Shown in pieces: positions 1 to 33,117 of a DNA stretch of 33,117 nucleotides; the first letter of the stretch is position 1, and every line of letters starts with the position of its first letter. The DNA comes from Aduncisulcus paluster (taxonomy: Eukaryota), in assembly GCA_024181965.1 (NCBI GenBank), contig BQXS01009722.1, positions 1 to 33,117 of the forward strand, given 5' to 3'. The position numbers and the translations under genes were made by a program. The notes beneath the pieces were generated by a model. It did no database searches. It saw only the letters and a program-made list of their open reading frames with translations, and was not told the DNA's origin.

Positions 1-3000
1 TGGAACAAGGCAAGAATCGACATTCCAAGAGAATATCCATCACTCCTTTGAGTCTGTTTTCCTTCACAGAGAGTCTCATAAGAATTATACACGATAGTTC
101 CACAAGCAGAGGGTTTAGGTTGTGAAAGTCGTTTTTCTTGTTTGGTGGAAGAAGAGGAAGGAATATAACTCTTGGAAGTTACAGATGATGTGATAGAATC
201 TAAGACTTGGAACATTCCAAGATCAGAGAGAACAATGCTACATTTCTTTGAATCATGATCAACACGAACAAGGAAGTTGTCTGGTTTAACATCTCGATGA
301 ACAAGACTCTTCTTTGCTCTAAACACATCATCAAGACACTCAATCATGCCAACACAGAGAGCACTCACTTTCACAGGGTTCAGTGTCATGGGATCAAAAC
401 GAGTTGTGCCAATATCACTCTTGGAGTCAGAATCAGAAATACAAGATGAATCAGAATCTTCACTATCATCAGCATCACCAATATCACTCACATACTTGCC
501 ATCATCACACCATTTCTTGGCAAAGGAATTCACACTACCTCCAGCACAATATTCCATGATAAATCCATACACACCTTTCATGTCTGCATCAAGCAGGTCC
601 AGGATATACAAAGGACGTGGGATACGATTGAAACATTTGGGGTTGTTAAATAACTTTCGTTGCATCTTGAACTCCTTTCGGCATCCTTTAACAACCCTTT
701 CATCAGCTTCATGGAGCATTTTCTTCAGAACACAAGGAATAGGAATACCTTCAACTTCAACAAGAAGAACTTCACCAAATCCACCATGACCAATGATGCA
801 CTGAGGAGTGATGGTTGCAGAGGAAGTGAGAGTGAAAGAGTTTGGTTTGATAAGCTTTGTGGAATCTGAAGGAAGGGGGGGAATGTCTTCACCTTTAATG
901 AAAATGAGGGATTTAAAATAAAAAGTTCGACTCTTCTCATGTTCCCATGTCCCTTTTCCCTGAATCTCACATAAAATAACCTTTGGAAGATCAATAGGAA
1001 GAAAGTAATATTCAGATTTATGTAGAATTTCTAGGTCAGATTTAAGTTTAATTTCTGTGAATTCATACCTCTTGGATATCTTCATACCATTAAAAAGAGT
1101 GAAAGTGAAGAGAAGGGCAGGAATTAAATATTTAGGAACAGAAATATATGCACCTTTAATTGAATTAAATGATTGAAAAGGGATGGAAAGATGGGATAAG
1201 GAGAATGCAATACCTTCCCCCTTTAACATTTTTTGTGCATTTGAACTCTGATCATAATACTCAGATTCCTTACAACATACATTATTCTTACACGTAACAT
1301 CTGAGAATGAAGGATTTATGATTGAGGTATCACCAAGGGAATCTACAATTTCTTTGGTTACAGACATTGGTTTCACAGGTGAAGATTTCAACCAGAATTC
1401 TTCGAGATCTATTTTTTGTTTTTTTCGAGCAATATATTCATCAGGAGTTTCTTCTCGATAAAAAGCAAGGGAAATAATATCAAAATTCTCCCTTTCTTCT
1501 TGGTTTCCTTTGATATCTCCTTTGATATCACATGAAATAACATCAGAGAGACCAATTGAAAGCTCAAACCAACAATCTTTGGATTCGGTATCAAATTTAT
1601 ATAAATATGATATTTTGCTTCCATTTGAAGAAGTGAATGTGAATAGAAAAGATAAAGAATCACGAGATGGTAGACAGATATAGGCACATTTCATAGGTGT
1701 TGATGATTTGAAAGGAATGGAAATATGAGAAAACCCAGAATAAAAAATACCCATTCCTTTCATCATCTTTTGTGCAAACTTGCTCGTATCATCATACCTA
1801 TGACCTCGATTCTTTCTTGCTTTAATTGCAGTTAAATCTGGAATGATAAATGTTGGATCATCTCGAGGGATTGGAATACGTGAACGATCTCCTTTATAAA
1901 GAAAATCAACTTTTCCCAATAAAATACGTTGTTTGAGGAAAACTAAAGATTTGATTGTAAAACATCGACTATTCTTCTCTTTCCACATTCCTTTCTTTTC
2001 AATCTCACACAATACAACGTTATCCAGATCAATAGGAAGGAAGTGCCATTCATAGTCATGTTTAGGTCTTGTGAATTCATACTTCTTGCGTGTCTTCTTC
2101 CCATCACAATCAGTAAAAGTGAAGAGAAGAGAGGGTGAACTATCATGCATATCCACACAGATATAAGCACCTTTCATTGGACTAGGTGATGGGAAAGGGA
2201 TGGAAAGATGGGATAATGTCACTTCTCCTTCACCTTTCAACATTCTTTGAGCTTCTTCACTTTGGTCATACTCCTCAGATTCCTTACAATACCAATAATT
2301 CTTTCCCTTGACCATCTCAAAAGAAGGATTATTAACGGCTGCATTACCACGTGGAATGGGGATGGCAGATGGATCGCCAGAATTCACAAACTCTGATTTA
2401 ATGGCGGGCTACATATCATTTTTGAAAAAGAGAGATATAATGGTATTAGAAACAAATCGAGAGATAATATTGTTAAATAAGATTAGCGTGAATCGTATCA
2501 AATAATAAAACAAAGAAATGTGAAAATATTAAACCAATAAAATATAATGAACATACAGCTTTAGACCATTGTTCCTCAATGGATTCTCGAATACAACGTT
2601 CTTCAGAGGTTTCTTCTCGAAAGAAAACGAGGGAGGAGATTCTAAAACATCGACTATTCTTCTCATTCCACATTCCTTTCCCTTCAATCTCACACAATAC
2701 AACATTATCCAAATCAATAGGAAGGAAGTGCCATTCATATTCATGTTTAGGTCTTGTGAATTCATACTTCTTGTATATCTTCTTACCATCACAATCAGTG
2801 AAAGTGAAGAGAAGAGAGGGTGAACTATCATTCCAATCCACACAGATATAAGCACCTTTCATTGGACTGGGTGATGGGAAAGGGATGGAAAGATGGGATA
2901 ATTTCACCCTACCTTCACCTTTCAACATTTTTTGAGCTTTTTCACTTTGGTCATACTCCTTAGATTCCTTACAATACGAATCCTTACTTACCGTATCATT

Positions 3001-4928
3001 CTTTCCCTTGACCATCTCAAAAGAAGGATTATTAACGGCTGCATTACCACGTGGAATGGGGATGGCAGATGCATCGCCAGAATTCATAAACTCTGATTTA
3101 ATGGTGGGCTACATATCATTTTTGAAAAAGAGATATATAATGGTATTAGAAATAAATTGAGAGATAATATTGTAAAACAAGATTAGCGTGAATCGTATCA
3201 AATAATATAACAAAGAAATGTGAAAATATTAAACCAATAAAATATAATGAACATACAGCTTTAGACCATTGTTCCTCAATGAATTCTCGAATACAACGTT
3301 CTTCAGGGGTTTCTTCTCGAAAGAATACGAGGGAGGAGATGTCAAAGTATCGACTATTCTTCTCTATCCACCTTCCTTTCCCTTCAATCTCACACAATAC
3401 AACATTATCCAGATCAATAGGAAGGAAGTGCCATTCATAGTAATGTTTAGGTCTTGTGAATTCATACTTCTTAGATACCTTCTTACCATCACAATTAGTG
3501 AAAGTGAAGAGAAGAGAGGGTGAACTATCATACTTATAAACACAGATATAAGCACCTTTCATTGGACTAGGTGATGGGAAAGGAATGGAAAGATGGGATA
3601 ACCATACACCACATTCCCCTTTTAACATTTTTTGTGCTCTTGAACTCTGATCATACTTCTCAGATTCCTTACTAAACGCATCATTCTTGCACTTAACCAT
3701 TGAGAATGAAGGATCTACAAGCTTTGGATCATCACGTGGAATAGTAATAGAATATCTATCTCCTTCCTGAACAAACTCTGGTTTCACAACTTGAGCTTCT
3801 GACCATAGTTTCTCTCGAAAAGCTTCTTTGGCTTCACGAAATATAGTTTCTTCATGTGTTTCTTCTCGAAAAAATATGAGGGAGAAGATAGTAAAAGACT
3901 CTTTCTTTCTTCCTTTCCCTGTAATCTCACACAGAACAACATCAGAGAGATCAATAGGGAGAAAGAACCAGCTTGTTTTTTCTAATTCAGAAAATTCATA
4001 TTTTTTAACCATTTTCTCCCCCTTTGAAGATGTTAAAGAGAAGATAAGGTGTGAGGGTGAATAACGAATTAATTTTCCTCGAATACAAATATAAGCACCT
4101 TTAATGGGAGTTGATGTGGAGAAAGGAAGGGAGATATCTGTAAATTCTCCCCAATAATACTCTCCCTTCATCATCTTTTGTGCTGCAGAACTCTGANNNN
4201 NNNNNNNNNNNNNNNNCTTCTTTGGCTTCACGAAATATAGTTTCTTCATGTGTTTCTTCTCGAAAAAATATGAGGGAGAAGATAGTAAAAGACTCTTTCT
4301 TTCTTCCTTTCCCTGTAATCTCACACAGAACAACATCAGAGAGATCAATAGGGAGAAAGAACCAGCTTGTTTTTTCTAATTCAGAAAATTCATATTTTTT
4401 AACCATTTTCTCCCCCTTTGAAGATGTTAAAGAGAAGATAAGGTGTGAGGGTGAATAACGAATTAATTTTCCTCGAATACAAATATAAGCACCTTTAATG
4501 GGAGTTGATGTGGAGAAAGGAAGGGAGATATCTGTAAATTCTCCCCAATAATACTCTCCCTTCATCATCTTTTGTGCTGCAGAACTCTGATCATATTCTT
4601 TATCACCTTTTCCCTTGGTCCTATTCTTGGCGTTGATAACAGTTATATCAGGACTCTTAACATTCGGGGAATCTCGAGGAATTGGAGAGGTAGATAAATT
4701 ACCTTCATGAATTAATTCTGGTTCAATGAGTTGAATCTACAAAATTTAATTGAGTTTTTGGTGGAAATGAAGCAATAAAAAACGCCCGAAAGAGAAAAGG
4801 TGTCATGAAAGCAATATGGGCATTATTTTTCAAATTAATTATATCAAACATCATAAAATGTATAAATTCGAAAACTTTCAGAAACATACAATATCTTGGC
4901 TACGTTCTGAGCTTGGTTTTGGATCCAT
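1..4928 (-). CDS. Multi-exon tandem-repeat + Ser/Thr kinase protein, paralog A (6 repeats + kinase; 3' end runs off the window). Exons 4928-4890, 4736-3257 (after collapsing the N-gap duplication), 3108-2557, 2408-<1; >1360 aa
   Basis: Manual splicing at GTATGT donors (4889, 3256, 2556) and TAG acceptors (4737, 3109, 2409) gives one open frame from MDPKPSSERSQDI|IQLIEPELIHEG. I translated 2408 to 1 without a stop (absent from the ORF track, probably because it has no stop codon in the window). Kinase motifs: GHGGFG (~775-791), VLKK, HRDVKPDN, DLG, CGTIVYNSYE, SDGYSLG. Repeat consensus: IPIPRDDP..P.F..VK..DQS..AQKMLKGE..LSHLSIPF...KGAYIC..LLFTFT..KKYEF..W.FLPIDL..VVLCEI.GKG. Confidence 0.9.
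2409..2556 (-). other. Phase-0 spliceosomal intron (148 bp), repeated intron copy 1
   Basis: GTATGT...GATATGTAG; removal joins WSKA|PAIKSEF in frame; nearly identical to 3109-3256, 26741-26889 and 27979-28122. Confidence 0.88.
3109..3256 (-). other. Phase-0 spliceosomal intron (148 bp), repeated intron copy 2
   Basis: GTATGT...GATATGTAG; removal joins WSKA|PTIKSEF in frame. Confidence 0.88.
3823..4590. other. Assembly overlap artifact: 3823-4196 repeated as 4217-4590 across a 20-N gap
   Basis: Direct copy abutting the N run; collapsing it restores an in-frame 1086-nt exon. Confidence 0.9.
4737..4889 (-). other. First intron of paralog A (153 bp, phase 0)
   Basis: GTATGT donor after ...SQDI; TTTTGTAG acceptor before IQLIEP; homologous intron at 25454-25606. 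Confidence 0.8.
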
Positions 4929-5708
4929 TGTGTTCTAAAATGTCTATGATGAGAACACGAACGATAATAAAAATAATATGATAATTTTAACAAAGAATGT
5001 CACCACAATCATCGAACATGAAGTGAGTTTCAAGGAGGAAATGACGACAAGAACAAAAAAGAACAGCCAGCGAGAGAACCAGTGAATAAAACAGGGTGAT
5101 TATGGATTGACAAGAAGTTAATATCTAACTAACGAAAATTTATGACATACAATATTTTCAATATTTCTTTTACAACAGGAAGAAATGAAGTTTTAGAATT
5201 CAAAACTCTGTATAATAACAATGCAAGATGACATTGCAGAATATATCGATTAAAAAATATAAATGTTTTCTTTCTAACATATATTGGATANNNNNNNNNN
5301 NNNNNNNNNNATAATAAAAATAATATGATAATTTTAACAAAGAATGTCACCACAATCATCGAACATGAAGTGAGTTTCAAGGAGGAAATGACGACAAGAA
5401 CAAAAAAGAACAGCCAGCGAGAGAACCAGTGAATAAAACAGGGTGATTATGGATTGACAAGAAGTTAATATCTAACTAACGAAAATTTATGACATACAAT
5501 ATTTTCAATATTTCTTTTACAACAGGAAGAAATGAAGTTTTAGAATTCAAAACTCTGTATAATAACAATGCAAGATGACATTGCAGAATATATCGATTAA
5601 AAAATATAAATGTTTTCTTTCTAACATATATTGGATAACAATCTTGTCATTCCACTCCTGAGACAAGATCGTTTCCTAAATCCCGAGTTTTGTTCACATA
5701 TTGCATTG
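4929..5708 (-). promoter_or_regulatory. Upstream region of paralog A, homologous in inverted orientation to 24981-25414
   Basis: Proximal ~130 bp nearly identical to the reverse complement of 25285-25414; distal block 5627-5708 matches 24981-25077, including an exact 19-mer (5643-5661 vs 25042-25060). Regulatory function is inferred only. Confidence 0.5.
4964..5637. other. Assembly overlap artifact: 4964-5290 repeated as 5311-5637 across a 20-N gap
   Basis: Direct copy abutting the N run. Confidence 0.88.
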
Positions 5709-10632: not shown

Positions 10633-10828
10633 GGCTTACTGCCTCATGAGTGTCTCACAAAACCATAATTTATTAATCAGATTGCTTCTTGTATTGTAGC
10701 CAGAGAAATGAATTTTAAAATGGGTTTTTATTTGGTCATAGAAATTGAATATATCAAATATAATTTGCTAAAACATTGAATAAAAGAATTAGAAAAAATA
10801 GTCACGTTTCTTCGCTAAAGGTTCTGAA
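10633..10828. promoter_or_regulatory. Probable bidirectional promoter (196 bp) between the NEK-type kinase and the CstF-50-like gene
   Basis: Short AT-rich spacer between divergent ATGs at 10632 (-) and 10829 (+). No specific motif identified. Confidence 0.5.
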
Positions 10829-12998: not shown

Positions 12999-13643
<645 letters not shown>

Positions 13644-15731: not shown

Positions 15732-16030
15732 CTTGAATAATGTTAAAATATTTAATGGATGATGTTTTTACGCTTTCTTTATTTGACTGTCTAGTTGAGT
15801 TTTGATCTACTTGATCAAATACTTCTAAATTTTGGATTTGGCTTTGGAATATGGATCTACTAATAGCGATAAATCGCATAAAACATTATCAAAATTTATA
15901 TTTCTTTTTAATTCCAGTTTTAATGACTTGGAACGGGGATCTCCCTCAATATACCTAATATGATATTAAGAAGGTGATTCGGAGTCAGTAATTCCCCATA
16001 AATCTTTTTATTTCATCCTAGAATTTCTTT

Positions 16031-18409: not shown

Positions 18410-18961
18410 TTCACCAAAAAAGGTTATTCCCCAAATCAAGGCAATTTCTCTTGAACGTGTCTATCTCTTCTCAGCGGAAAGATATTTTATTAGACAAGTA
18501 AAAAAATATAAATCATAACGAATGATTATTATAAGTTGGCAGAATTGTCATGGAAGATGTTTTAATCTAGAGATGATTCTTTCTCTGAACACCTTCCAAA
18601 ATCATCAATACTTTTCTTATTAATAATTAAAAATGAACACTTTCTTACNNNNNNNNNNNNNNNNNNNNGATGTAATTAAATAACCTTTTTTTCCGTGGAT
18701 ATGAATATTTTTTTTCATCATTTCACCAAAAAAGGTTATTCCCCAAATCAAGGCAATTTCTCTTGAACGTGTCTATCTCTTCTCAGCGGAAAGATATTTT
18801 ATTAGACAAGTAAAAAAAATATAAATCATAACGAATGATTATTATAAGTTGGCAGAATTGTCATGGAAGATGTTTTAATCTAGAGATGATTCTTTCTCTG
18901 AACACCTTCCAAAATCATCAATACTTTTCTTATTAATAATTAAAAATGAACACTTTCTTAC
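18357..18961. other. Assembly overlap artifact: 18357-18648 repeated as 18669-~18961 across a 20-N gap
   Basis: Direct copy abutting the N run; the only difference I saw is a poly-A run of 7 vs 8. Confidence 0.88.
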
Positions 18962-19794
18962 GTTACACAATATTTTTATCGGCGGTTTTTTTCATGAGCG
19001 TTTATTCTTGGGGACCGATTACCCATCAAGCACTCACATACTGGTTAGCTGGCAATAGTGATGTTCCTTTTGATCCTAATGATCCAGAACTTCTTATTGG
19101 AGCCGCTCTTCCTGATGCTTTGAAGCTTCTCAACTCTAATTTCCACACATTTGATTTTGCTTTTTGTCTTTATAATATTACTCAGATTCACCCAGCTTAT
19201 GATGTATATCCTGCTTGGAGCTTATCAGCTGGTTATTTACTTCACATTGCTGAGGATTATATTGCTCACAAGTCTTCTGATCCCACTGGGTTCCTTCCAC
19301 GAGACACCAGTGAGGATGATCACGAATCAGAGCTTGCTGTGGGATCATATGTCCTCGATGGGAGTGAGTATATCCAAGACATTGGAGATTATTCGTTTGC
19401 CATCAAGAAAGTTGATCGCATGTCAAGTGATCTCTACGATTTCATCGCCTATGCTTCAAAGCTTTGTCTCAATTTCCCCATCACGGCTGACAATGTTCTT
19501 GACACTTTGGTGGAATTTAGTGCTGTTCAAGCTGGTTGGTTGGTTGGAGCTTCTACTTTAACTGTTGATCAGGCTTACACTGCTATTTTGCCACCTCTCG
19601 AGAGTGATAAGTGCGGATCCAGTAACGATTGGTATAAAACTAAGCAGAATTTAGACAACAATTTGGAAAATGCAGCGTATCTTGCCTACACGGTGTATGA
19701 TACCTTCAGAAGTCAGCCAAATGTTACAACCGCTGAGAGTTACATGGATTCAGAGGCAGATATTGTCATGAATGATTATGTTTGTGCCGTTTAG
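18946..19794 (+). CDS. Secreted zinc-dependent phospholipase C / P1-nuclease superfamily protein (282 aa)
   Basis: Signal-peptide-like MNTFLRYTIFLSAVFFMSVYS directly followed by WGPITH (mature Trp1 plus His), GAALPD, NFH, GYLLHIAEDYIAH and H..ELAV, matching the metal-ligand pattern of this fold. Confidence 0.8.
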   Translation: MNTFLRYTIFLSAVFFMSVYSWGPITHQALTYWLAGNSDVPFDPNDPELLIGAALPDALKLLNSNFHTFDFAFCLYNITQIHPAYDVYPAWSLSAGYLLHIAEDYIAHKSSDPTGFLPRDTSEDDHESELAVGSYVLDGSEYIQDIGDYSFAIKKVDRMSSDLYDFIAYASKLCLNFPITADNVLDTLVEFSAVQAGWLVGASTLTVDQAYTAILPPLESDKCGSSNDWYKTKQNLDNNLENAAYLAYTVYDTFRSQPNVTTAESYMDSEADIVMNDYVCAV

Positions 19795-20070
19795 TATTTT
19801 TAATTTTGTTTATCGCTTTTAATTGGATTTATATAAATAAATGTTTGATTTTTTATTTCTTTTTCGACATCAATGAATATTATGAATATTGTAATAATAT
19901 TGTTGCATATGATTAAAATTTTATATTGACCATTGATTTCCTTTCTATTTAGCCTCTCCGATCGGAGTTCAAACTCGAATAAATCGATCTCGCTCTGAAG
20001 GGCCGTTTTTCTTTCTGTTTCAAACCACAAAAAGATATTTAACCAGAAGAAATAATAATTAAATTGCAAT

Positions 20071-20694
20071 ATGTCAGCTGACCAATCATTTGATGATGGA
20101 TTTCACTCTGAAGATCACACAGTATCAAATGCTGCTTCAAGATTCATGGAATCTGAGCTTGCAAATGCAAAAATTCGTGAAGGAGTTGAACTTATTGAGC
20201 AACAATCTGGTATTTTATCGCTGTTAGAAGATATTCTATTTATTTCACTCTTCCTTATCGTCAGTTATGCTAGCGAGTTCCCTAAAAAGGTAATTTATTC
20301 AGAAATTCCAAAAAATAGATATTTATATGTTGGTTTATTCTTTGTTTGCGTTGCTGTTGTCTGTAATATTATTTTTACAGTTATGAATTGTCTCAAACCC
20401 AAGAAAGTTGCCCAGCTCAAATCCTCTCTTTCAACGGGGACTAAAAAGATTAAATCTGATGAACCACTCCCATTGACCGCCATGATTGCCACGGCTTCAT
20501 TTATATTGGCCCTTATTTTATTCTGTCCTGGTTTGTGGCCCTTCTACCAAGGTTGGACCTTAGTGATTCTTGTTCTTTGTGTTCTATTCTTAATTGGAGT
20601 TATATCTATTATGAGTGACATCGGAGGATGGATCCAGAAACAAAAGATGAAGAAGGTCACCGAAAGTGAAATTCCCGAGGCAAAATCCATGTAA
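20071..20694 (+). CDS. Four-TM membrane protein, TMEM128-like (207 aa)
   Basis: Four hydrophobic segments; IATASFILALILFCPGLWPFYQGWTLVIL resembles the TMEM128 C-terminal pattern (recalled similarity, not searched). Confidence 0.62.
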   Translation: MSADQSFDDGFHSEDHTVSNAASRFMESELANAKIREGVELIEQQSGILSLLEDILFISLFLIVSYASEFPKKVIYSEIPKNRYLYVGLFFVCVAVVCNIIFTVMNCLKPKKVAQLKSSLSTGTKKIKSDEPLPLTAMIATASFILALILFCPGLWPFYQGWTLVILVLCVLFLIGVISIMSDIGGWIQKQKMKKVTESEIPEAKSM

Positions 20695-21317
20695 TTTCTC
20701 TCGGATGGAAGCAATTAATCTGTTTATGGTGTGAAAATATTATTCTTTAATACTGTATTGTGTAGTTTAAAGATCTTTCCCCACATCTCAACTTGAGAAT
20801 GGTATGAATAGTTTATCTGTTGTCAATATTATTATATCATTGCAATGTATATGGATGGTTGTCAGGCGATACGGCCAAACCTGAATTATATAGATATATA
20901 TTGTTATCACCACTGTCCTTCCCAACTTGGGAACTTGAAGTTATTCTCGTATGTTCTGCCTAGGAATCACTTGTTGATCTCTTCATCTTTGTCATTCAAT
21001 TCATCAGTGAATGGGAATGAACATATAATAAATTTTTTGTGTATGAAATCAAATTTATCTGCAGTTTCAAACTCAAAGGCTTTGAAGTTCAAAAATATCT
21101 CAACCTCCATAAATACTAAGAATTTACAATGAAAAATAACATTTTTCAAAAAATAATATCCTTTAATATCCAATACTTACATTTAAAATTGTCTGACTAT
21201 AAGTAAAAAATGAGGATGTATTGTCTTGGCGTTTTCTCTCGTATAAAATTACCAATTATACATTTTACAAAAAATTTATTTATTATTCATTTTTTTACGT
21301 GAAAATCTGAAAAAAAT

Positions 21318-24300
21318 ATGAGTAGTAAGTTATCCCAATCCCTTATGGGATTCAAGTCAGTCCTCCTACAATATTTTTCGAGGTGTAAAGAAAATATTTT
21401 GTATAAGGCAACCTCTGCAAATGATGTATTTGTGTTTTTGAATAATTTGAAAACAATCTTTGAGAGTATCGTTCCACCTACAGCTTTCGAGACTCTTTCT
21501 GCAGAATCTTCTCTTGAAAGTAGCCCAATTCTTGAAATTATTCGAATCTCTTCGGATATTCGGAATTACTTATCTCTTGGTTATTTTTTCCTCTCAAAAG
21601 TTCGTGCACTGAAGCACGAAAGCCATCGTTTGGCCTCTGAATTCATGTCCATAAAGGAGTATGATTTCGATCAAGATACAATCGTGTCTCCCCATCCAAT
21701 TTGCCATCTTCCCGCCTATATAAGCCGGATTGTTGAGTATTTTCAATATGCTCCTATTCTTCAATGGGCTCACGAAAAATGTGAATTCACTTCTTTATTG
21801 TTTGAATTGCATTATAACCCTCCAAAAGAGTATAAAACTCAATCATTTCAATTTAGAGCCCAGAAAGACAAAGCCAAACGACAGTTTCTAGATCGTCACT
21901 TCAACAGATTGCCTCTTATCCCTCTTTGTGACTGTTTTAAGGCGACATTCTCCTGCAAATCCCCCAGACTCACAGGTGAAATATTCCATCTTGTTGATTC
22001 CATTGATATTCCGACCAAATCGACTTCATCTGTGATGGATTTTCTTGACCTGTTATTCTCCTTCTCTTCAACCGCCGAACCCACCCATGGACTCCCACTG
22101 TGTGTATTTATGCAACGACCCGTGTGTTGTATGATTAAAGACACGCCTATACTTGCCAGTAGGCTTCGTAAGACTTCTCGAGGTGATTTTGATGCTGTTA
22201 AAATGATGGAATTCACTGCTCTCATGCCTAAGACGAGCTCACTATCCGATATATTTGTTTCAACGTACAATTCTGCATCTTCTAAACCTTTTAATTGTAG
22301 TCTTTCATTCAGTGGTGGTATTTTGGCATCTTATGCTGCTTCCTTGCTTGCTCGTGGTAATATTACACCTATGGTGACACCTAAATTGATTGAAGTTCTC
22401 AAATTATCTCCTTCTGATGTGTCTGATTGTACAAATCCAATTAACTTTTACTCTCCTTGTCACATTCGTCAGTGTTCTTATCATGGCATTGTTACCAATG
22501 TTAGCGAGTCCATCCTTGATGTTTTTAAGGAATTCTTCGAAGAAGATGATGAAGAAGATGAAGAAGAAGACGAATATTCGTCCTCTTCATCTTCGTGCTC
22601 ATCCAAGAGTGACCATTCTTCGAAAAAAGATTATTCCTCCCCCTCTCTTCATAAAAACTTAAATGATTCCAGTCCTGAAAGCTTTGTTGGCTATAACGAA
22701 TTTCACAATGCGACGAAGGATATTTTTATTTTCTCCATTGGACTATCCTCTCCTAAATCTTCCAGAAGTAGAAGAGGTTTCTCCGAGGTTGCTTCAAGTT
22801 CTTACTTTGAGCTTTTCTCTGGGTCTGGGAGCAAAAGTTCTTCATGTCTTGGTCGAAATGACAATGTTTCTCTTTGGGATGCATTCTGGAAACGTTCCAT
22901 TGGTGCCGAGGAACGTCTGAAGAAATGCACATTACCTGTTGACTTTGCAAGGATCATTTCCGATGTTTGTTTTGACCCATCAAGCCTTGGCCGTCTCAAT
23001 GCTGCTCTTATTGATATTCCTTCACTTTATGACCCTTCTGCACTCCTCCACAAATGCTCAAAATCATTTGCTTCCATCCATCGAAGTCTTGGCATTCGTG
23101 ACAAGTCCAGTCTTGACACTGATTTGTCATTTTATTTCTCCTTGAACAAGACATTTGGCTGGATGTCTCAGAAGAAGCTTGATCCATTCTCTTTCGAGCT
23201 CATGTATTCCAGTTCCACAGATGACGACATGACCACTGATGCCTTTGAGGATGTGGATGAATGTTCATGCTCTGATGATTCTTCTCCTTCTTCATCTGAG
23301 GAACCTTCATTGCCTCATTCTGCTTCGGGAATGATGGGAGCTTATTCATCAACTTCAATGATACATTCTGATTCATTTCCTTCACCTTCAAAAAGCGATG
23401 CCTATGTTTCATCTCTCAGAGAAAAGTTAAAAGGAATGAGCCCAAGCCAGCGCATTGATTTTCTCAAATCGATAAAAATGGAACAAGAATTGGAAATCAC
23501 AAAGTTGAAAAACCAAAAGTTTGCTGTTGATAAAGAAGCGTCACACCTAAAGGCCGAGAAAGACAAAATCAGCGATGATGTGAAAGCTTTCAGAGAGTTG
23601 GTCCGAAAAGAGAAGATGGCTTGTAAAAGAGCTGAAGATGAGTTCTATGACCACTGTAAAAAGTTGAGAGAAAGCCGTGAGGAGAAAGAACACGATCAGA
23701 AATCCCAGGCAGAAGGCTTTAAAAAATCCCTTCAGGAAACGGAGAAAGAGAAACGTAGGAAAGAGAAGGCCCGTCAAGCAGCTCTAAGAGAAGAAAGGCG
23801 TCTTTTGAAGGAAAAAAAGGAAGCAGACGATGATATCCAGGCCCAATCTTCCAGAATCACACGTGTCAGAAAATCCAGGGAAAAAGATGAAGAAGATATT
23901 GAAAAGCGTCAAAAAGAACTTGATGAATTGGAAACTAAAAAGCAGATTGCTGACAAAGGAAAAGATATCCTTGACATTGAAAAGGACCAAGAAGAGCAGA
24001 AAAGATTGACTCGGTTACGTCTGTTTTATGCTTCTTCTGCCTGGTACCCTTCTGATTGGTGCGTGTATCGTGGCATCTGTTCTTCTGATTCCGCTAAGCA
24101 GCCTGTCTTGGTTCCCTTGAAATGTCTGGATACTTTCCAAGCCTTTGTCGATGACACTTGCATCACAAAATATCTCGGCTCTGGTCGTGATGTGGTCAAG
24201 ACTGAAAAATACAATTATCTCGAAGTTCACAAAGCTTACCGAATCGAGAATCCTGCCCTTTGGCACAAGTATTACCTTTACCGTCAGTCTATCATCGACC

Positions 24301-24896
24301 AATACAAATCGATCGACGACAAATTCACTCCACTCGATGCAGCTACGGATAAAACGAAATTGGCAAAGATAATCCTTCCCAACAAACATGATCCTGCATG
24401 CCTTCCCATTGATATGTCCAAGCTGTCCGAATGTAAACTATCTCCAAAGGATATTGATACCAAAATGCCTGCAGACTACCACTCTCCGGATTTGAGTGCA
24501 TTTGTCAATGAGAAACTTCTATTCCATGGGACTAAAGCGAGGTTTGTGGATGCTATTATGAGATGTGGTGCAGATTTTCGTCTTGCAGCCAATGGTATGT
24601 ATGGACATGGAACATACTGTGCCGAAAATTCGAGCAAAAGTGACCAATACTGTGTATGTGGTGATGATAAACTTTACCCGATGTTTATTACTCGTGTTGT
24701 TATGGGTCCATGTCCTTACAAATCCCCAACGACTTGTAATGGAAGGATCAAACCTCCTCCAATTCCTGGAACTGATCTATTGTACACATCAATTCATGGA
24801 AGATTTAGAGAGTGGTCTCAGCATGAATTCGTTGTGTATGAGCTAAGTTGCTTCTACCCTCAGTATTTGATGTGGTACAAACGAGTCCAGAAATAA
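21318..24896 (+). CDS. PARP-family ADP-ribosyltransferase (1192 aa): unknown N-terminal region, central coiled coil, C-terminal catalytic domain
   Basis: RIENPALWHKY, NEKLLFHGT, GMYGHGTYCAENSSKSDQYC, MFITRVVMG, HEFVVYELSCFYPQYLMWYK give an H-Y-E triad in a tankyrase/PARP12-like context. E/K/R-rich coiled coil at ~23400-24020. Confidence 0.9.
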   Translation: MSSKLSQSLMGFKSVLLQYFSRCKENILYKATSANDVFVFLNNLKTIFESIVPPTAFETLSAESSLESSPILEIIRISSDIRNYLSLGYFFLSKVRALKHESHRLASEFMSIKEYDFDQDTIVSPHPICHLPAYISRIVEYFQYAPILQWAHEKCEFTSLLFELHYNPPKEYKTQSFQFRAQKDKAKRQFLDRHFNRLPLIPLCDCFKATFSCKSPRLTGEIFHLVDSIDIPTKSTSSVMDFLDLLFSFSSTAEPTHGLPLCVFMQRPVCCMIKDTPILASRLRKTSRGDFDAVKMMEFTALMPKTSSLSDIFVSTYNSASSKPFNCSLSFSGGILASYAASLLARGNITPMVTPKLIEVLKLSPSDVSDCTNPINFYSPCHIRQCSYHGIVTNVSESILDVFKEFFEEDDEEDEEEDEYSSSSSSCSSKSDHSSKKDYSSPSLHKNLNDSSPESFVGYNEFHNATKDIFIFSIGLSSPKSSRSRRGFSEVASSSYFELFSGSGSKSSSCLGRNDNVSLWDAFWKRSIGAEERLKKCTLPVDFARIISDVCFDPSSLGRLNAALIDIPSLYDPSALLHKCSKSFASIHRSLGIRDKSSLDTDLSFYFSLNKTFGWMSQKKLDPFSFELMYSSSTDDDMTTDAFEDVDECSCSDDSSPSSSEEPSLPHSASGMMGAYSSTSMIHSDSFPSPSKSDAYVSSLREKLKGMSPSQRIDFLKSIKMEQELEITKLKNQKFAVDKEASHLKAEKDKISDDVKAFRELVRKEKMACKRAEDEFYDHCKKLRESREEKEHDQKSQAEGFKKSLQETEKEKRRKEKARQAALREERRLLKEKKEADDDIQAQSSRITRVRKSREKDEEDIEKRQKELDELETKKQIADKGKDILDIEKDQEEQKRLTRLRLFYASSAWYPSDWCVYRGICSSDSAKQPVLVPLKCLDTFQAFVDDTCITKYLGSGRDVVKTEKYNYLEVHKAYRIENPALWHKYYLYRQSIIDQYKSIDDKFTPLDAATDKTKLAKIILPNKHDPACLPIDMSKLSECKLSPKDIDTKMPADYHSPDLSAFVNEKLLFHGTKARFVDAIMRCGADFRLAANGMYGHGTYCAENSSKSDQYCVCGDDKLYPMFITRVVMGPCPYKSPTTCNGRIKPPPIPGTDLLYTSIHGRFREWSQHEFVVYELSCFYPQYLMWYKRVQK

Positions 24897-25414: not shown

Positions 25415-28400
25415 ATGGATCCAATGCCAAGCTCAGAACGTAGCCAAGATATTGTATGTTTCTAAAAGTTTTCGAATTTATACATTTTATGATGTTTGAT
25501 ATAATTAATTTGAAAATTAATGCCCATATTGCTTTCATAAACCCATTTTCTCTTTCGGGTGTGTTTTATTGCTTTATTTCAACCAAATGCACAATTAATT
25601 TATTAGATTCAAGAAGTTAAGCCAGAGTTTATTCATGAAGGTGACAAATCTTGCTCTCCAATTCCTCGAGATTGCCCGAATGTTAAGAGTCCTGATATAA
25701 CTGTCATCAAAGCCAAGAATAGGACCAAGGAAAAAGGCGATAGAGAATATGATCAGTGTTCTGCAGCACAAAAGATGATGAAAGGAGAGCGTAATTGGGG
25801 AGAATTTACAGATATCTCCCTTCCTTTCTCCACATCTACTCCCATTAAAGGCGCTTATATTTGTATTGGAGGAAAATCATCCAGTTCTCCACCCCCATCA
25901 CACCTTATCTTCTCTCTTACATCTTCAAAGGGGGAGAAAATGTTTAAAAAATATAAATTTCTTGAATCAGAAATAATAAGCTTATTATATTTATTCTCGG
26001 AAACTGATAGCTGGTTCTTTCTCCCTATTGATCTCTCTGATGTTGTTCTGTGTGAGATTACAGGGAAAGGAAGAAAGAAAGAGTCTTTTACTATCTTCTC
26101 CCTCATATTTTTTCGAGAAGAAACACATGAAGAAACTATATTTCGTGAAGCCAAAGAAGCTTTTCGAGAGAAACTATGGTCAGAAGCTCAAGTTGTGAAA
26201 CCAGAGTTTGTTCAGGAAGGAGATAGAAATTCTCAAGGTAGATATTCTATTCCTATTCCGCGTGGTGATCCAAAGCTTGTAGATCCTTCATTCTCAATGG
26301 TAAAGTGCAAGGATGATTCGAAGAGTAAGGAATCTGAGGAGTTTGATCAGAGTTCAGATGCACAAAGAATGTTAAAAGGGGATCGCTTTGTGCGGTTATC
26401 CTATCTTTCCATCCCTTTCCCATCACCTAGTCCAATGAAAGGTGCTTATATCTGTGTTTATAAGTATGATAGTTCACCCTCTCTTCTCTTCACTTTCACT
26501 GATTGTGATGGTAAGAAGACACGCAAGAAGTATGAATTCACAAGACCTAAACATGTATTTGAATGGCACTTCCTTCCTATTGATCTGGATAATGTTGTAT
26601 TGTGTGAGATTGAAGGGAAGGGAACGTGGAAAGAGAAGAATAGTCGATGTTTTATCATCCTCTCCCTCGTATTCCTTCGAGAAGAAACCCCTGAAGAACG
26701 TTGTATTCGAGAATCCATTGAGGAGCAATGGTCTAAAGCTGTATGTTCATTATATTTTATTGGTTTAATATTTTCACATTTCTTTGTTTTATTATTTGAT
26801 ACGATTCACGCTAATCTTATTTAACAATATTATCTCTCGATTTGTTTCTAATACCATTATATATCTCTTTTTTCAAAAATGATATGTAGCCCACCATTAA
26901 ATCAGAGTTTATTCATAGAGGAAATTATCTTTGCTCTCCAATTCCTCGAGATTGCCCGAATGTTAAGAGTCCTGATATAACTGCTATCGAGTCCAAGAAT
27001 AGGACCAAGAGAAAAGGTGATAGAGAATATGATCAGTGTTCTGCAGCACAAAAGATGATGAAAGGAGAGGGTAATCGGGGAAAATTTACAGATATCTCCC
27101 TTCCTTTCTCCACATCTACCCCCATTAAAGGTGCTTATATTTGTATTGGAGGAGGATACTATTTCTGTCCACCCTCACGCCTTATCTTCTCTTTAACATC
27201 TTCAAACGGGGAGAAAATGGTTAAAAAATATGAATTTCCTGGATTAGAAAAAACAAGCTGGTTCTTTCTCCCTATTGATCTCTCTGATGTTGTTCTGTGT
27301 GAGATTTCAGGGAAAGGAAGAAAGAAAGAGTATTTTGAAATCGAATCCCTTGTTTTCATTAGTAGAGAAGAAACTCCTGAAGAAATCAAAGCTTGTGAAG
27401 CCAGAGAGAAACTATGGTCTGAAACTCCAGTTGTGAAACCAAAGTTTGTTCAGGAAGGAGATTGGACATCTCAAGGTAGAGATTCTATTCCCATTCCGTG
27501 TGATGATCCAAAGCTTGTAGACCCTTCATTCTCAATGGTTAAGTGCAAGAATGATTCGAAGAGTAAGGAATCTGAGGAGTATGATCAGAGTTCAGGTGCT
27601 CAAAGAATGTTAAAAGGTGAAGGTTTTGTACGGTTATCCCATCTTTCCATCCCTTTCCCATCACCTAGTCCTATGAAAGGTGCTTTTATCTATGTGGATG
27701 AAGATAATAGTTCACCCTCTCTTCTCTTCACTTTCACTGATTGTGATGGTAAGAAGACTTCCAAGAAGTATGAATTCACAGAACCTAAACATTACTATGA
27801 ATGGCATTTCCTTCCTATTGATCTGGATAATGTTGTATTGTGTGAGATTGAAGGGAAAGGAACGTGGAGACGGAAGAATAGTCGATACTTTGACATCGAC
27901 TCCCTTATATTCTTTCGAGAAGAAACCCCTGAAGAACGTTGTATTCGAGAATCCATTGAGGAACAATGGTCTAAAGCTGTATGTTCATTATATTTTATTG
28001 GTTTAATATTTTCGCATTTCTTTGTTTTATTGATACGATTCACGCTAATCTTATTTTACAATATTATCTCTCGATTTGTTTCTAATACCATTATATATCT
28101 CTTTTTCAAAAATGATATGTAGCCCACCATTAAATCAGAGTTTATTCATGAAGGTGACGAATCTTGCTCTCCAATTCCCCGAGACTCCCCAAATGTTAAG
28201 AGTCCTGATATAACTGTCATCAAAGCAAAGAATAGGACCAAGGGAAAAGGTGATAGAGAATATGATCAGAGTTCTGCAGCACAAAAGATGATGAAAGGAG
28301 AGGGTTATCGGGGAGAATTTACAGAAATCTCCCTTCCTTTCTCCACATCTACTCCCATTAAAGGTGCTTACATTTGTATTCGAGGAAAATATACCCTATC

Positions 28401-31400
28401 ACCCTCACACCTTATCTTCTCTTTAACATCTTCAAAGGGGGAGAAAATATTTAAAAAATATGAATTTCTTGAATTTGGAGGTTATCATTGGTATTATCTC
28501 CCTATTGATCTTTCTGATGTTGTTTTGTGTGAGATTAGAGGGAAAGGAAATTGGGAAGAGTCTTTTGGAATTATATCTCTGAAAAAGTGTTTTTTTTCTA
28601 TCCGATCCCTTGTTTTCATTAGTAGAGAAGAAACTTTTGAAGAAACTCAATCTCGTGAAGCCAGAGAGAAACTATGGTCTGAAGTTCCTGTTGTGAAATC
28701 CGAATTTGTTGGGATTGGACACAAAGAATTTCAGCCGATTCAATTTGATGACCCAGCAATAATTTACCCTTCATTTTCAATGGTTAAGGCAAAATTGGAT
28801 CATTATTGTAAAGAATCTTCCGATTATGATCAGAGTGAAAGAGCAAAAAGAATGTTGGAGCTCAACTATGATGGAATTTGGTATCGTGAGTGTGATTTAT
28901 TTGTGTCCCATCTTTCCATCCCTTTCCCATCACCTCGTCCAATGAAAGGTGCCTATATTTGTGTGGATAAGGATGATAGTTCACCCTCTCTTCTCTTTAC
29001 TTTCACTGATTCTGATGGCAATAAGACATCCATAAAGTATGAATTCACAGAACCTATTTATGAATTTGAATGGTACTTTCTTCCTACCGATCTGTCGAAG
29101 ATTGTGTTGTGTGAGATTGAAGGAAAAGGAATGTGGAAAGCGAAGAATACCAGAAAATTTAAAATCAATTACTTGGTTTTCCTTCAACAACGTGTTTCTT
29201 TGGTAAGAATCAGGAATATATTTGATGGTTCTTCTCGATGTATTCCAACTCCTCGAGATGATCCAACCTTTATTTGTCCAGATTTTGCTGCAATTAAAGT
29301 AAGAAGGATCAAACCAGGAGATGTTTCCCAAGATTTTGATACTAAGAGCGATTCAGAGGGAACTATATTGGAAGATGAAACAGATCGTGATGTAATTAAA
29401 GTAACAAGCAAAGCAAAAGCAAAAGATGTCATTGGGGATGAGATTGGACAAAAGATCATGAAAGGAGAGGTGTGTAGTTTTGAAGATGTCGGGTTTTCTT
29501 ATATTTCCATTCCTTTTAAATCATCGATATCTATTAAAGGTGCTTATATCTGTTTATGTGATGGTTTGGCTGCTGGTGATACATATCTTTTCACATTTAC
29601 CATATCAAATGGAAAAAAAAGATACAATACCTATCAAATTCCTAAACGTGATCGTCCATCTTGGTGGTACCTTTCGATTGATCTCTCTGATATTGTTTTG
29701 TGTGAGATTGAAGGTAGAAAGACAAAAAATAACCATTTTCGAATTTTTTCTCTGGCATTTTATCGAAAAGAAACTCCTGATGAAGAGAATAATCGAAAAA
29801 ACAGAGATTTTTGGCAAAACAGAGCGTGGATAGAAACCATAACTATCAAACCTGAATTCATTAAGGAAGGATATAGAGATTCTATTCCCATTCCTCGAGA
29901 TGATGAGTCAATCATAAATCCTTCATTTTCAGATGTTCAGGGGAAGAATGATGTCTATTGTAAGGAATTTGGGGAGTATGATCAGAGTTCAAAAGCACAA
30001 AAAATGTTAAAAGGGGAAGATTCTGTATCTTTATCCCATCTTTCCATTCCTTTTCCATCTCCTTGTCTAATGAAAGGTGCTTATATCTGTGTGGCTAATG
30101 ATTTGAGTTCGCCTTCACTTCTCTTCAGATTTTCTCATTCTTGTGGCACTAAAACGTTCAAAAGGTATATATTTTCGAAATTTGAGGAACCCACTTCCAA
30201 ATCCACAAAGGAAGATTTTGAATTTGAATCCAATGGATTATCCAAAGATTCGGAATTTGAATCGATAATTAATACTAGATGGTATTTCCTTCCTATAGAT
30301 TTACCAAATGTTATTTTCTGTGAGATTCAAGGAAAAGGGACATGGAAAGAGCGGTTGAGTCGAAGTTTTCAAATAGAATCCCTCATTTTCATTAAAGGTG
30401 AAGACATTCCTCCCCTTCCTTCAGATTCCACAAAGCTTATCAAACATGACTCTTTCACTCTCACTTCCTCTGCAACCATTACATCTCAGTGCATCATTGG
30501 TCATGGTGGATTTGGTGAAGTTCTTCTTGTTAAAGTTGAAGGTATTCCTATTCCTTGTGTTCTGAAGAAAATGCTCCATGAAGCCGATGAAAGAGTTGTT
30601 AAAGGATGTCGAAAGGAGTTCAAGATGCAACTCAAATTGTTTACGAATCCAAAATGTTTCAATCGTATCCCTCGTCCTTTGTATATCCTTGACCTGCTTG
30701 ATGCAGATATGAAAGGTGAATATGGATTTATCATGGAATATTGTGCTGGAGGCAGTGTTAAGGATTTTGCTAGAAGTTGGTGTGATGATGGCAAGTATGT
30801 GAGTGATATTGGTGATGCTGATGATAGTGAAGATTCTGATTCATCTTGTATTTCTGATTCTGACTCCAAGAGTGATATTGGCACAACTCGTTTTGATCCC
30901 ATGACACTGAACCCTGTGAAAGTGAGTGCTCTCTGTGTTGGCATGATTGAGTGTCTTGATGATGTGTTTAGAGCAAAGAAGAGTCTTGTCCATCGAGATG
31001 TTAAACCCGATAANNNNNNNNNNNNNNNNNNNNAAAGGAGTTCAAGATGCAACTCAAATTGTTTACGAATCCAAAATGTTTCAATCGTATCCCTCGTCCT
31101 TTGTATATCCTTGACCTGCTTGATGCAGATATGAAAGGTGAATATGGATTTATCATGGAATATTGTGCTGGAGGCAGTGTTAAGGATTTTGCTAGAAGTT
31201 GGTGTGATGATGGCAAGTATGTGAGTGATATTGGTGATGCTGATGATAGTGAAGATTCTGATTCATCTTGTATTTCTGATTCTGACTCCAAGAGTGATAT
31301 TGGCACAACTCGTTTTGATCCCATGACACTGAACCCTGTGAAAGTGAGTGCTCTCTGTGTTGGCATGATTGAGTGTCTTGATGATGTGTTTAGAGCAAAG

Positions 31401-32369
31401 AAGAGTCTTGTCCATCGAGATGTTAAACCCGATAACTTCCTTGTTCGTGTTGATCATGATTCGAAGAAATGTATTATTGTTCTTTCTGATCTTGGATTAG
31501 CAAAGATACAAGATTCTATTTCTTCTTCGTTATATTCTTCAACAGCCTCAAATTTCGCTCCCTATTCTACAATCCTGAGTGGGAAAGAAGACAATCCTTC
31601 AAAACAAAAGGGTAAATGTGGAACTCTTGTGTATAATTCGTATGAAACTCTTTTGGATGGGACTCAGACTCAAAAGAGTGATGGATATTCTCTTGGAATG
31701 TCGATTCTTTCGTTATTCTTATGTGAGCAACCTTTCACTTCATTGCCCATCTTCAGAGAGGTTTATAGGAAAGTTCGCATGGGAGAAGCTGATGATTTTG
31801 ATATTATGAAATTATTAAAGCGTTTGATGGAAAATGATATGTGTCCACGTCTATCTCGATCTCCTTTGTTTAAATCCTTGTTAACCATTGAAGATGGGAA
31901 ATACCAAGCTGTTCATGCATGTTTGAATGAAATATTCACTCGTCTCACCAAACTCGATGAAGATGAACGTATGAGTATTCATGAAGCTTTTGAGAAAGTT
32001 CAATCCATCAAATATTTACTTCCAAAGATTGGAGAAGGATTTAAATGTCCACCTATTGAGGATATTGTAAAACGTCAGCTTGCAAAGTTTAAAAGAGACG
32101 CTGGATGTGTTGAAGAGGAAATGGAAGATGGGAGTGAAAAAGAAAAGGATGGCAAAGTTTCTCTCGTATCAACAATTCAAAGTAAGGAGAAAGAAAATCG
32201 TGATATCCCTTCATATGATAAAAAAGAGACTCATGGTTTATCAACAACACTCTCCACATCAACAATCCAAAGTTCTGTGGGTGATCACAGAGATATGATG
32301 TCATTTACTGATGAGATTGATAGCCGTGGTCGAAGGATAATCAAACCAAAGGAAAAGGAAGGGAAATGA
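25415..32369 (+). CDS. Multi-exon tandem-repeat + Ser/Thr kinase protein, paralog B (8 repeats + kinase, ~2028 aa). Exons 25415-25453, 25607-26740, 26890-27978, 28123-32369 (omitting duplicated 31014-31435)
   Basis: Three phase-0 GTATGT...TAG introns splice ORFs 25775, 27055, 28288 and 31047 into one frame (6087 nt including stop). Kinase motifs GHGGFG, VLKK, RKEF, HRDVKPDN, DLG, CGTLVYNSYE, SDGYSLG. No signal peptide or TM segment seen. Confidence 0.92.
25454..25606 (+). other. First intron of paralog B (153 bp, phase 0)
   Basis: GTATGT...TTATTAG; joins SQDI|IQEVKPEF. Confidence 0.8.
26741..26889 (+). other. Phase-0 intron (149 bp), repeated intron copy 3
   Basis: GTATGT...GATATGTAG; joins WSKA|PTIKSEF. 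Confidence 0.88.
27979..28122 (+). other. Phase-0 intron (144 bp), repeated intron copy 4
   Basis: GTATGT...GATATGTAG; joins WSKA|PTIKSEF. Confidence 0.88.
30612..31435. other. Assembly overlap artifact: 30612-31013 repeated as 31034-31435 across a 20-N gap
   Basis: 402-bp direct copy abutting the N run; collapsing restores HRDVKPDN|FLVR in a single kinase domain. Confidence 0.92.
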
Positions 32370-32759: not shown

Positions 32760-33117
32760 TTAAAATTGATCTTTATGATAGAGCTGATGATTGCTATCGC
32801 TACTCAGGTGAAAATTTTGATCATATCTTTTTCCAGCAAGGGGATTATGAGAAATTTGCATAACAGGTGCTGGATGCATTATAGGAGCAATGGAATACAA
32901 TTGCCTACCAGCTTTAGACCCCTTCTCCCCCTTCGAAGAACAGCAACAACACTTCACGATGATCACAATTGCAACAACAACAACTGCAACACCTCCACAA
33001 ATGATCAGGACGAGTTGCCACGTTTCCAATGAAGACGTAGAGAGAATTGTTTCACATGAGTCTCCTCCAAAACCATCATAACATTGACACGTCACAAGCT
33101 CCGAATCATTTTCTATT
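32760..33117 (-). CDS. C-terminal end of a type I membrane protein with an EGF-like domain (5' part outside the window)
   Basis: TCQCYDGFGGDSCE (CxCxxGxxGxxC EGF tail), TM helix WQLVLIICGGVAVVVVAIVIIV, juxtamembrane KCCCC, short cytoplasmic tail; frame open to the window edge. Confidence 0.85.
   Translation of the reverse strand, partial: IENDSELVTCQCYDGFGGDSCETILSTSSLETWQLVLIICGGVAVVVVAIVIIVKCCCCSSKGEKGSKAGRQLYSIAPIMHPAPVMQISHNPLAGKRYDQNFHLSSDSNHQLYHKDQF

Follow-up and report, generated by a model that had tools for sequence, protein, structure and literature searches.

The stretch of DNA analysed here, called the window below, comprises the 33,117 nucleotides of contig BQXS01009722.1 (assembly GCA_024181965.1) from Aduncisulcus paluster, which is a free-living fornicate flagellate (metamonad) and a deep-branching relative of Giardia. 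It is AT-rich and eukaryotic, with introns of the GTATGT..TAG form, and it carries two inverted paralogs: paralog B (25415-32369, plus strand), with 8 repeats, and paralog A (3-4928, minus strand), with 6 repeats, in both of which the repeat array is followed by a Ser/Thr kinase. A preliminary description, made from the letters of the sequence, had proposed a diversifying intracellular sensor-kinase system at this place. From the analyses reported here we infer a lineage-specific, diversifying, repeat-receptor-like family built on a new scaffold with a directly fused kinase, whose function would be recognition.

The draft genome of A. paluster was assembled from short reads (29.4 Mb, N50 4.6 kb, 15,316 predicted proteins), and RNA-seq hints were used in building its public gene models (PMC9933649). 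The two genes are laid out in the window as follows.

25415..32369, plus strand: paralog B, whole gene, ATG at 25415, stop codon ending at 32369; 8 repeats, kinase and K/E-rich tail
25415..25453, plus strand: B exon 1 (MDPMPSSERSQDI), hydrophilic N-terminus; same junction in the public model of paralog A (P0003)
25454..25606, plus strand: B intron 1, 153 nt, GTATGT..TAG; 91% identity with intron 1 of paralog A
25607..26740, plus strand: B exon 2, phase-0 symmetric, 378 codons; repeats B1 25607-26185 (type a) and B2 26186-26740 (type b)
26741..26889, plus strand: B intron 2, 149 nt, GTATGT..TAG; 96-99% identity with three other introns
26890..27978, plus strand: B exon 3, 363 codons; repeats B3 26890-27426 (type a) and B4 27427-27978 (type b)
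27979..28122, plus strand: B intron 3, 144 nt
28123..32369, plus strand: B exon 4, whose first part, 28123..30426, holds repeats B5-B8
Within B exon 4, plus strand: repeats B5 28123-28686, B6 28687-29217, B7 29218-29835, B8 29836-30426
30427..31994, plus strand: B linker and protein kinase domain; Pfam Pkinase match, motifs read directly
B kinase motifs, plus strand: GHGGFG near 30499, HRDVKPDN near 31413 (post-gap copy), DLG near 31488
31014..31435: assembly gap of 20 N (31014-31033) and an exact 401-nt duplicate (31035-31435) of 30613-31013, treated as a scaffolding artefact
3..4928, minus strand: paralog A, start at 4928; 6 repeats, kinase 3-863 running off the window start
Paralog A repeats, minus strand: A1 4736-3797, A2 3257-3796, A3 2557-3108, A4 1920-2408, A5 1371-1919, A6 864-1370
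4197-4216: N gap inside A1; the 374-nt flank 3823-4196 recurs at 4217-4590, at an offset of 394 nt
2409..2556, minus strand: paralog A intron 3, 148 nt; 1 mismatch against B intron 2
3109..3256, minus strand: paralog A intron 2, 148 nt

Paralog B has the span that had been described for it and consists of 5 coding pieces, which give a single open spliced frame of 2028 aa once the gap duplicate is skipped. The exon logic of paralog A is like that of B, and the public model P0003 agrees on the splice junctions; in that model the duplicate flanking the gap is absorbed as a spurious partial repeat, and annotated repeat counts in the family are therefore unreliable. Every 20-N gap that was checked is flanked by an exact duplicate of the preceding sequence (401 nt; 374 nt), and the window has further N runs at 5291-5310, 7324-7343 and 18649-18668.

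A single repeat used as phmmer query recovers 14 units, 8 in the plus-strand gene and 6 in the minus-strand gene, which bears out the 14 copies in two paralogs first counted from the sequence; domain E-values are 2e-23 to 2e-129 for the 12 whole units, B7 and B8 being split by insertions. The unit is 489-618 nt long, i.e. 163-206 aa. Four repeats (A1, B1, B3, B5) are of type a and six (A2, B2, B4, A3, A4, B6) of type b, and separate types are formed by the penultimate repeats (A5, B7) and by the kinase-proximal ones (A6, B8). Exons 2 and 3 of paralog B each hold exactly one a+b pair and have a length that is a multiple of three.

The repeats differ from each other mainly at a restricted set of positions. 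Variable columns were defined only from 37 two-repeat proteins encoded outside the window, in order to avoid circularity: 41 of the 366 scored columns have no majority residue, while most of the others are at least 90% conserved, and type a and type b have homologous variable positions. Pooled over 435 unique repeats from 244 proteins, the variable columns fall into five clusters, which lie after the N-terminal EG, after KGE, after YIC, ahead of a conserved Trp, and in a stretch that starts at GKG and takes in every other residue of the last strand (xFxIxS). In the repeat HMM, the loop columns are 12-15, 61-66, 87-91, 114-121 and 141-154. Four segments in loops, together with those residues of the last strand that face outward, differ in almost every copy and the framework is nearly constant; 142 distinct loop combinations are present among 143 type-b repeats at a framework identity of at least 70%. 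Over the 435 repeats, these columns show an excess of N (3.4x), Y (3.3x), W (2.1x) and D (1.9x), as well as of H and R, and a deficit of P, V, I, L and F. The preliminary description had named Y, W, R, D and F as the residues introduced by variation; the first four are enriched and F is instead depleted (0.52-fold).

All the variable strings listed in that description are present in the alignment of the 14 repeats: RNWG/GNRG/GYRG/YYWG after MKGE; GGKSSSS../GGGYYFC../RGKYTL../RGKLIRY.. after YICI; DRFVR/EGFVR/ECGVW/EGRVK/EGEVT after MLKG; YKYD/DEDN/DWND/DMHD/DKDD; VF/YY/EY/DY after PKH; and CFIILS/YFDIDS/YFDISS/CFRISS/CFTIKS after NSR. In this alignment the loops with variable residues also hold insertions and deletions. 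In the last strand of B5 (28560-28620, plus strand) ..ESFGIISL is followed by KKCFFSIRSL, a 10-aa insertion located exactly in the hypervariable xFxIxS strand; this apparent local duplication may be the footprint of slippage or micro-recombination.

Codon analyses were limited to the 14 repeats of the window. In three comparisons of a+b pairs, the Nei-Gojobori ratio of nonsynonymous to synonymous divergence (omega, dN/dS) is 1.20, 1.76 and 2.88 at variable codons and 0.35-0.45 in the framework; at the former dN is 0.55-0.71, which exceeds the framework dS (0.08-0.20) by a factor of 3-6. Changes are thus concentrated at the same few positions and are mostly non-synonymous, as had been noticed from the sequence. 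Site models M1a and M2a were compared with a purpose-written Goldman-Yang likelihood, and M2a is preferred both for the six type-b repeats (twice the log-likelihood difference, 2dlnL, 39.9) and for the four type-a repeats (30.4), with about 5% of codons having omega well above 1; in 14 data sets simulated under the fitted M1a the maximum 2dlnL is 5.46. The trees of the N-terminal and C-terminal halves of the type-b repeats conflict, from which recombination among these repeats is deduced. Half-alignments analysed on their own trees still favour M2a (2dlnL 10.5, 23.2, 12.8 and 15.9). Of the sites identified under M2a with a posterior above 0.8, 6 of 7 and 4 of 6 are also in the independently defined variable set (Fisher p 1.1e-5 and 0.0015). 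When sites were fixed and the variable class was given its own synonymous rate, omega of this class was 2.60 (p=0.023) in type b and 1.53 (p=0.41) in type a. Once the local synonymous rate is allowed for, positive selection is of moderate strength; in our reading real diversifying selection acts on a minority of the loop positions, and the remaining variable positions are at the least free of constraint. Repeats that are highly conserved but carry hypervariable, positively selected positions, a feature of NLR/STAND-type receptors (NOD-like receptors and their kin), are found in these genes.

No named sequence family accounts for the repeat. Pfam gives 0 families in the repeat open reading frames at E<=0.1, and 0 of the 14 repeats match any Pfam family of the galactose-binding-domain-like fold at E<=10, where only unrelated chance matches appear; as sequence families, F5_F8_type_C (PF00754), CBM32 (PF18344) and APC10 are not matched by their profiles. 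A structure was predicted with AlphaFold2 for the pair of repeats in B exon 2, from an alignment of 40 sequences (the exon-2 pair, 37 two-repeat family proteins and two further pairs of the window). The model, a confident one (predicted local distance difference score, pLDDT, 92.4; predicted TM-score, pTM, 0.85), consists of two beta-rich domains, with a long linker helix after each. Its top Foldseek match in the PDB is the tandem CBM32 of Clostridium perfringens ZmpB (7jnd, E 1.4e-10), and the next matches are neuropilin b1b2, the DDR1 discoidin domain (4ag4), factor VIII C domains and allantoicase (E to 1e-5). The model superposes on solved members of the galactose-binding-domain-like fold: single-domain matches of VIA-align reach Z 10-13, with a root-mean-square deviation (rmsd) of 2.5-3.3 A over 118-133 residues, and include an F5/8 type C domain (3nng, Z 11.6, rmsd 3.3 A over 130 residues) and numerous CBM32 modules; also among them are proteins of this fold that are cytosolic (APC10, the DOC domains of HECTD3 and HERC2, muskelin, IFT25 and PITH). 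Language-model feature scores of 0.82-0.89 point weakly to the same families. On the basis of the model, the repeat is assigned to the galactose-binding-domain-like beta sandwiches, among which it is a sequence family of its own. The repeat had been described as impossible to assign to a named family, which holds for sequence families and not at the level of the fold, which is of the discoidin/CBM32/DOC type.

Mapping the variable positions on this model, another check that had been put forward, places 32 of the 41 in coil, against 119 of the 337 others (Fisher p 1.7e-7), and 37 of the 41 lie within 2 residues of coil. The chain passes in alternation through variable loops and conserved turns (PSPSPMKG, DGKK and an LDNV-type turn), and the last strand leads to the linker helix. 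Because of this alternation and of the strand order, the variable loops are predicted to lie together at the sandwich end that faces away from the chain termini. In discoidin, CBM32 and DOC domains, ligands are bound by loops at that end.

The family to which the two genes belong is large. The search with one repeat gave 216 proteins at E<=1e-3 and all of the 120 matches listed are from A. paluster, so that the family amounts to at least 216 of its 15,316 predicted proteins, about 1.4%. A profile built from the 14 repeats of the window and read against 1.84 billion cluster representatives (50% identity) gave 171 clusters at E<=1e-3; of 20 clusters sampled across the E-value range, 17 are from A. 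paluster, and Pfam scans of the other three gave no link of the repeat to another lineage. These three are a bacterial HYR-domain repeat protein (P0229) and an insect protein with transposase-type domains (P0244), both of them having no related domain, and an unnamed protein with no Pfam match (P0231). Among 255 fetched proteins, 244 carry the repeat, with 673 domain matches and 1-12 repeats per protein; exactly two repeats are present in 53 of the first 120 proteins, many of which are about 360 aa long, i.e. about one pair of the exon-2 kind. It is, in conclusion, a family of hundreds of members found only in A. paluster. A lineage-specific family of receptor-kinases had been suggested: the restriction to A. 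paluster stands in the searches made, and the kinase is not a general feature, 163 of the 244 members being without it.

Other partner domains do occur, an AAA domain in P0009 and leucine-rich repeats (LRR) in P0050; P0009 seems to be a fusion of two gene models, since its repeats start right after the end of a complete fidgetin-type ATPase. No NACHT or NB-ARC Pfam domain was found in either paralog or in 8 further family members. The UniRef name "NudC domain-containing" carried by some members has no Pfam support in any of the 4 that were tested. Members have been deposited only as hypothetical proteins, no published account of the family was found in the A. paluster literature, and the main text of the genome announcement is silent about it (PMC9933649); the family is undescribed so far.

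The kinase is recognised in the post-gap part of the plus-strand gene by Pfam Pkinase (PF00069, 48.3 bits against a cutoff of 31.7), and the precomputed Pfam listing gives PF00069 for 28 of the 120 family proteins listed. The catalytic motifs are present (the Gly-rich loop GHGGFGEV, the VLKK lysine, HRDVKPDN and DLG). The two kinases of the window had been called intact: their catalytic motifs are indeed kept, while the B kinase is crossed by the N gap and its duplicate and the A kinase runs off the window. Between A and B omega is 0.14 over the first 225 codons, with dS 0.21, and the kinase is under purifying selection. A kinase is present in 81 of the 244 repeat proteins, C-terminal to all repeats in 75 of them; HRDxKPxN is found in 54 and DLG in 48 of the 81, those without them being mostly short fragments. 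In the PDB, phmmer found nothing for the kinase at E<=1e-5 and, at E<=1, weak matches across CAMK, NAK, CK1, STE and RIPK (best E 6e-4); since these are spread over several groups, the kinase was left without a group. An acidic Ser/Asp-rich insert (DIGDADDSEDSDSSCISDSDSKSD), identical in both paralogs, lies in the B kinase at 30790-30890 (plus strand), between the N-lobe and the catalytic loop.

A Kyte-Doolittle hydropathy scan, the only method applied to this point, shows no hydrophobic leader and no membrane-span-like segment in either paralog, in agreement with what had been noted: the highest 19-residue means are 1.45-1.49 and fall within the kinase or a beta strand, and the N-terminus of each protein is hydrophilic. 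By the same simple scan, the signal peptide and the membrane span between sensor and kinase that characterise receptor kinases are absent, and both proteins are probably soluble and cytosolic. Met-Gly starts of the MGC.., MGxxxS and MGxxxT kinds are the pattern of N-myristoylation and palmitoylation. Twenty of the 244 family proteins start with Met-Gly (among them P0095, P0180, P0173, P0183, P0018, P0079 and P0111), and several of the twenty have such starts, which suggests that some members may be anchored to the cytosolic face of membranes.

Introns and linkers give an indication of how the arrays may evolve. The four inter-repeat introns (26741-26889, 27979-28122, 2409-2556 and 3109-3256), already described as nearly identical, are so at 96-99% (p-distance 0.007-0.041), differing at 0.7-4.1% of positions, and they are more alike than the framework synonymous sites (dS 0.08-0.20) of the adjoining exons; either they are homogenised together with the codons of the linker helix or they are constrained themselves. 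Divergence between repeat exons peaks in the 60-nt windows that hold loops (9.7-16 mismatches) and falls to 1.3-2.7 in linker-helix codons and introns. This profile, the similarity of the introns and the conflicting half-trees suggest unequal crossing-over or conversion whose breakpoints lie in linkers and introns, by which whole repeat exons would be duplicated and exchanged. In a four-gamete test for shuffling of loop cassettes there are 0 quartets, loop words almost never recurring. Mutagenesis of the kind carried out by diversity-generating retroelements (DGR) was rejected as the origin of the variety: C or T is the last base in only 54 of the 119 codon states at variable sites, where an NNY type would be expected from adenine-specific mutagenesis, TGG, AAR and GAR are common, and no reverse transcriptase is found among the genes of the window.

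Contigs of one sequencing run (X2), which is only guessed to be RNA, match 28976-30406 without mismatch; X2 holds 0.40 of the sampled words, and none of the runs is recorded as RNA. The contigs show no joint over any of the three introns, and there is no X2 cover in bins that are mostly intron or upstream sequence. Contig depth is a measure neither of copy number nor of expression.

The remaining genes of the window are of other kinds. Directly upstream of paralog B, at 21303-24896 (plus strand), lies an uninterrupted frame of 1197 aa whose product has a PARP catalytic domain at the C-terminus (Pfam E 6e-14) and a long coiled-coil-like stretch rich in Lys and Glu. Between the paralogs, a frame of 809 aa at 16031-18460 (minus strand) matches the MULE transposase domain (28.0 bits, cutoff 27.6), and there are six genes of ordinary appearance: a conventional Ser/Thr kinase (7345-10635, minus), a WD40 protein (11122-12627, plus), an E2 ubiquitin-conjugating enzyme (12999-13643, minus), a class IV aminotransferase-like gene (13944-15767, minus), a weak Zn-phospholipase C-like gene (18940-19794, plus) and TMEM128 (20059-20694, plus). 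A frame at 32760-33116 (minus strand), running off the window end, has an EGF-like Cys pattern, a hydrophobic stretch and a Cys-rich segment, and no Pfam match.

On balance, we consider it somewhat probable that the family is a recognition repertoire, in which arrays of diversified binding domains are combined with a kinase. In such a repertoire the loops would together form a binding site under diversifying selection, and each of the many copies would contribute a binding specificity. In the members that bear a kinase, binding of ligand by the array would probably recruit or cluster the kinase, converting recognition into phosphorylation, and members with two repeats and no kinase would serve as adaptors or unattached binders. 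New specificities would arise through point substitution in the loops and through duplication of phase-0 exons holding one or two repeats, and recombination between copies would keep framework, linkers and introns alike. The likeliest class of ligand would be non-self molecules, from prey bacteria or from intracellular bacteria or viruses, and an immune or non-self role of the family is plausible; of the interpretation first proposed for this locus, the concentrated variation, the cytosolic appearance, the conserved kinase and the restriction to one lineage are supported. More doubtful, and put forward tentatively, is the wider proposal that the metamonad possesses its own cytosolic innate recognition repertoire, made of hundreds of discoidin-like genes with antibody- or NLR-like loops at the tip, a third of them wired to a kinase, and renewed through exon duplication and intron recombination.

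Several points weigh against a recognition repertoire, and some of them would fit a structural or scaffold family as well, having a lineage-specific housekeeping role, for example as cytoskeletal or docking modules for an expanded set of kinases, with unconstrained loops, gene conversion elsewhere and no repertoire at all. Relaxed constraint explains part of the variable class, because its omega in type a is not significantly above 1 (1.53, p=0.41); moreover, the half-trees conflict, the introns are more alike than the framework synonymous sites, and recombination together with multi-base codon differences (many variable codons differ at 2-3 bases) can inflate the M2a tests, which were made on 4 and 6 sequences only and with our own implementation. 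Large kinase expansions with repeat domains are also known in the related Giardia. We nevertheless hold the scaffold explanation to be unlikely: omega is well above 1 in about 5% of codons, the likelihood ratios go far beyond the simulated null, the signal persists in the half-alignments, and the variable class of type b reaches 2.60 (p=0.023); the variable residues, rich in Tyr, Trp, Asn and Asp, are no random filler; of 143 loop combinations, 142 are unique on frameworks at least 70% identical; and conversion alone would also erase the differences between loops, unless selection keeps them. Two further points concern the model and the cell: the placement of the loops at one end was derived from strand order and secondary structure and not from coordinates, and the cytosolic location from the hydropathy scan only.

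The variable domains could instead dock endogenous substrates of the kinase, the members without a kinase having a regulatory role and the diversity being subfunctionalisation. DOC/APC10, muskelin, IFT25 and PITH, the cytosolic relatives by fold, do bind endogenous proteins, and the kinase is conserved, yet endogenous partners are not expected to drive nearly unique loops in hundreds of copies, and the absence of the family outside one species, in the searches made, would be left unexplained; this possibility appears to us quite improbable. Finally, the mosaic, or the array itself, might have been created by chimeric short-read assembly of many paralogs. The assembly is fragmented (N50 4.6 kb), N gaps with exactly duplicated flanks occur within both genes, so that repeat number and order may be partly wrong, and 3,888 short contigs of the DNA run lie on a 5.7-kb stretch at 97% identity or more, 1,318 of them fitting two places. 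Such chimeras could reshuffle loops and cannot create the pattern of sites, which is the same in 37 independent proteins and in the 435 repeats that 244 proteins contain; no stop interrupts the frames over 2028 aa, and the contigs of the DNA run match the unique parts without mismatch. An artefact of this kind is accordingly a very remote explanation of the mosaic or of the array.

If a recognition repertoire is indeed encoded here, it would be a convergent counterpart of the immune receptor families of plants, fungi and animals, with a fold and an architecture not known to be so used elsewhere; more folds and lineages than before would then be known to evolve immune-type repertoires, and the family would offer several hundred natural loop variants on one stable framework. 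Fast-diversifying intracellular receptor families are found in plants, animals, fungi and brown algae and are almost always built of solenoid repeats (LRR, WD40, ANK, TPR). In A. paluster the evolutionary signature of diversifying receptors is seen on a whole beta-sandwich domain joined directly to a kinase.

In its parts, the family resembles proteins that share its fold. Discoidin, F5/8 type C and CBM32 domains, including that of DDR1, have the same beta sandwich, and the DDRs also pair a discoidin-type domain with a kinase; the A. paluster proteins differ in having no sequence-profile match, a tandem array of 2-12 repeats, no signal peptide or membrane span in the hydropathy scan, and a kinase of the Ser/Thr type that is highly divergent (best PDB E 6e-4). 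DOC/APC10, the discoidin domain of muskelin, IFT25 and PITH have the same fold, at Z 11-12, and are intracellular, but they are single-copy, conserved housekeeping domains, whereas the repeat family is species-restricted, massively expanded and hypervariable.

In its evolutionary behaviour, the family resembles fungal NLRs of the HET-E/HET-D type with WD40, ANK or TPR repeats which, according to Dyrka et al. 2014 (PMC4986451), are cytosolic proteins of large lineage-specific families, with tandem repeats highly alike at the DNA level, positive selection at a few hypervariable positions of the binding face, concerted evolution, repeat reshuffling and combinatorial fusion to effector domains. 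The units of those fungal arrays are 33-42-aa solenoid repeats (PMC4986451), in contrast to a whole beta-sandwich domain of 163-206 aa, and in the A. paluster genes no NOD, NACHT or NB-ARC module was found, the output being a C-terminal kinase. The candidate receptors of Ectocarpus, ROCO-LRR and NB-ARC-TPR proteins, also have repeat units on separate exons, diversifying selection on the repeats and high gene birth and death, and a recognition function has been proposed for them in a non-model eukaryote, according to Zambounis et al. 2012 (PMC3341825). They are described there with LRR or TPR folds and with ROCO GTPase or NB-ARC signalling modules (PMC3341825), and exon shuffling is in our case only suggested by the phase-0 exons and the nearly identical introns. 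The family falls outside NLRs, receptor kinases and named domain families, with no NOD module found, no membrane span in the hydropathy scan and no sequence match; it is closest in evolutionary behaviour to the fungal NLR-type genes and the exon-shuffled candidates of Ectocarpus, closest in its parts to discoidin/CBM32/DOC domains and the DDR kinases, and a member of none of these groups.

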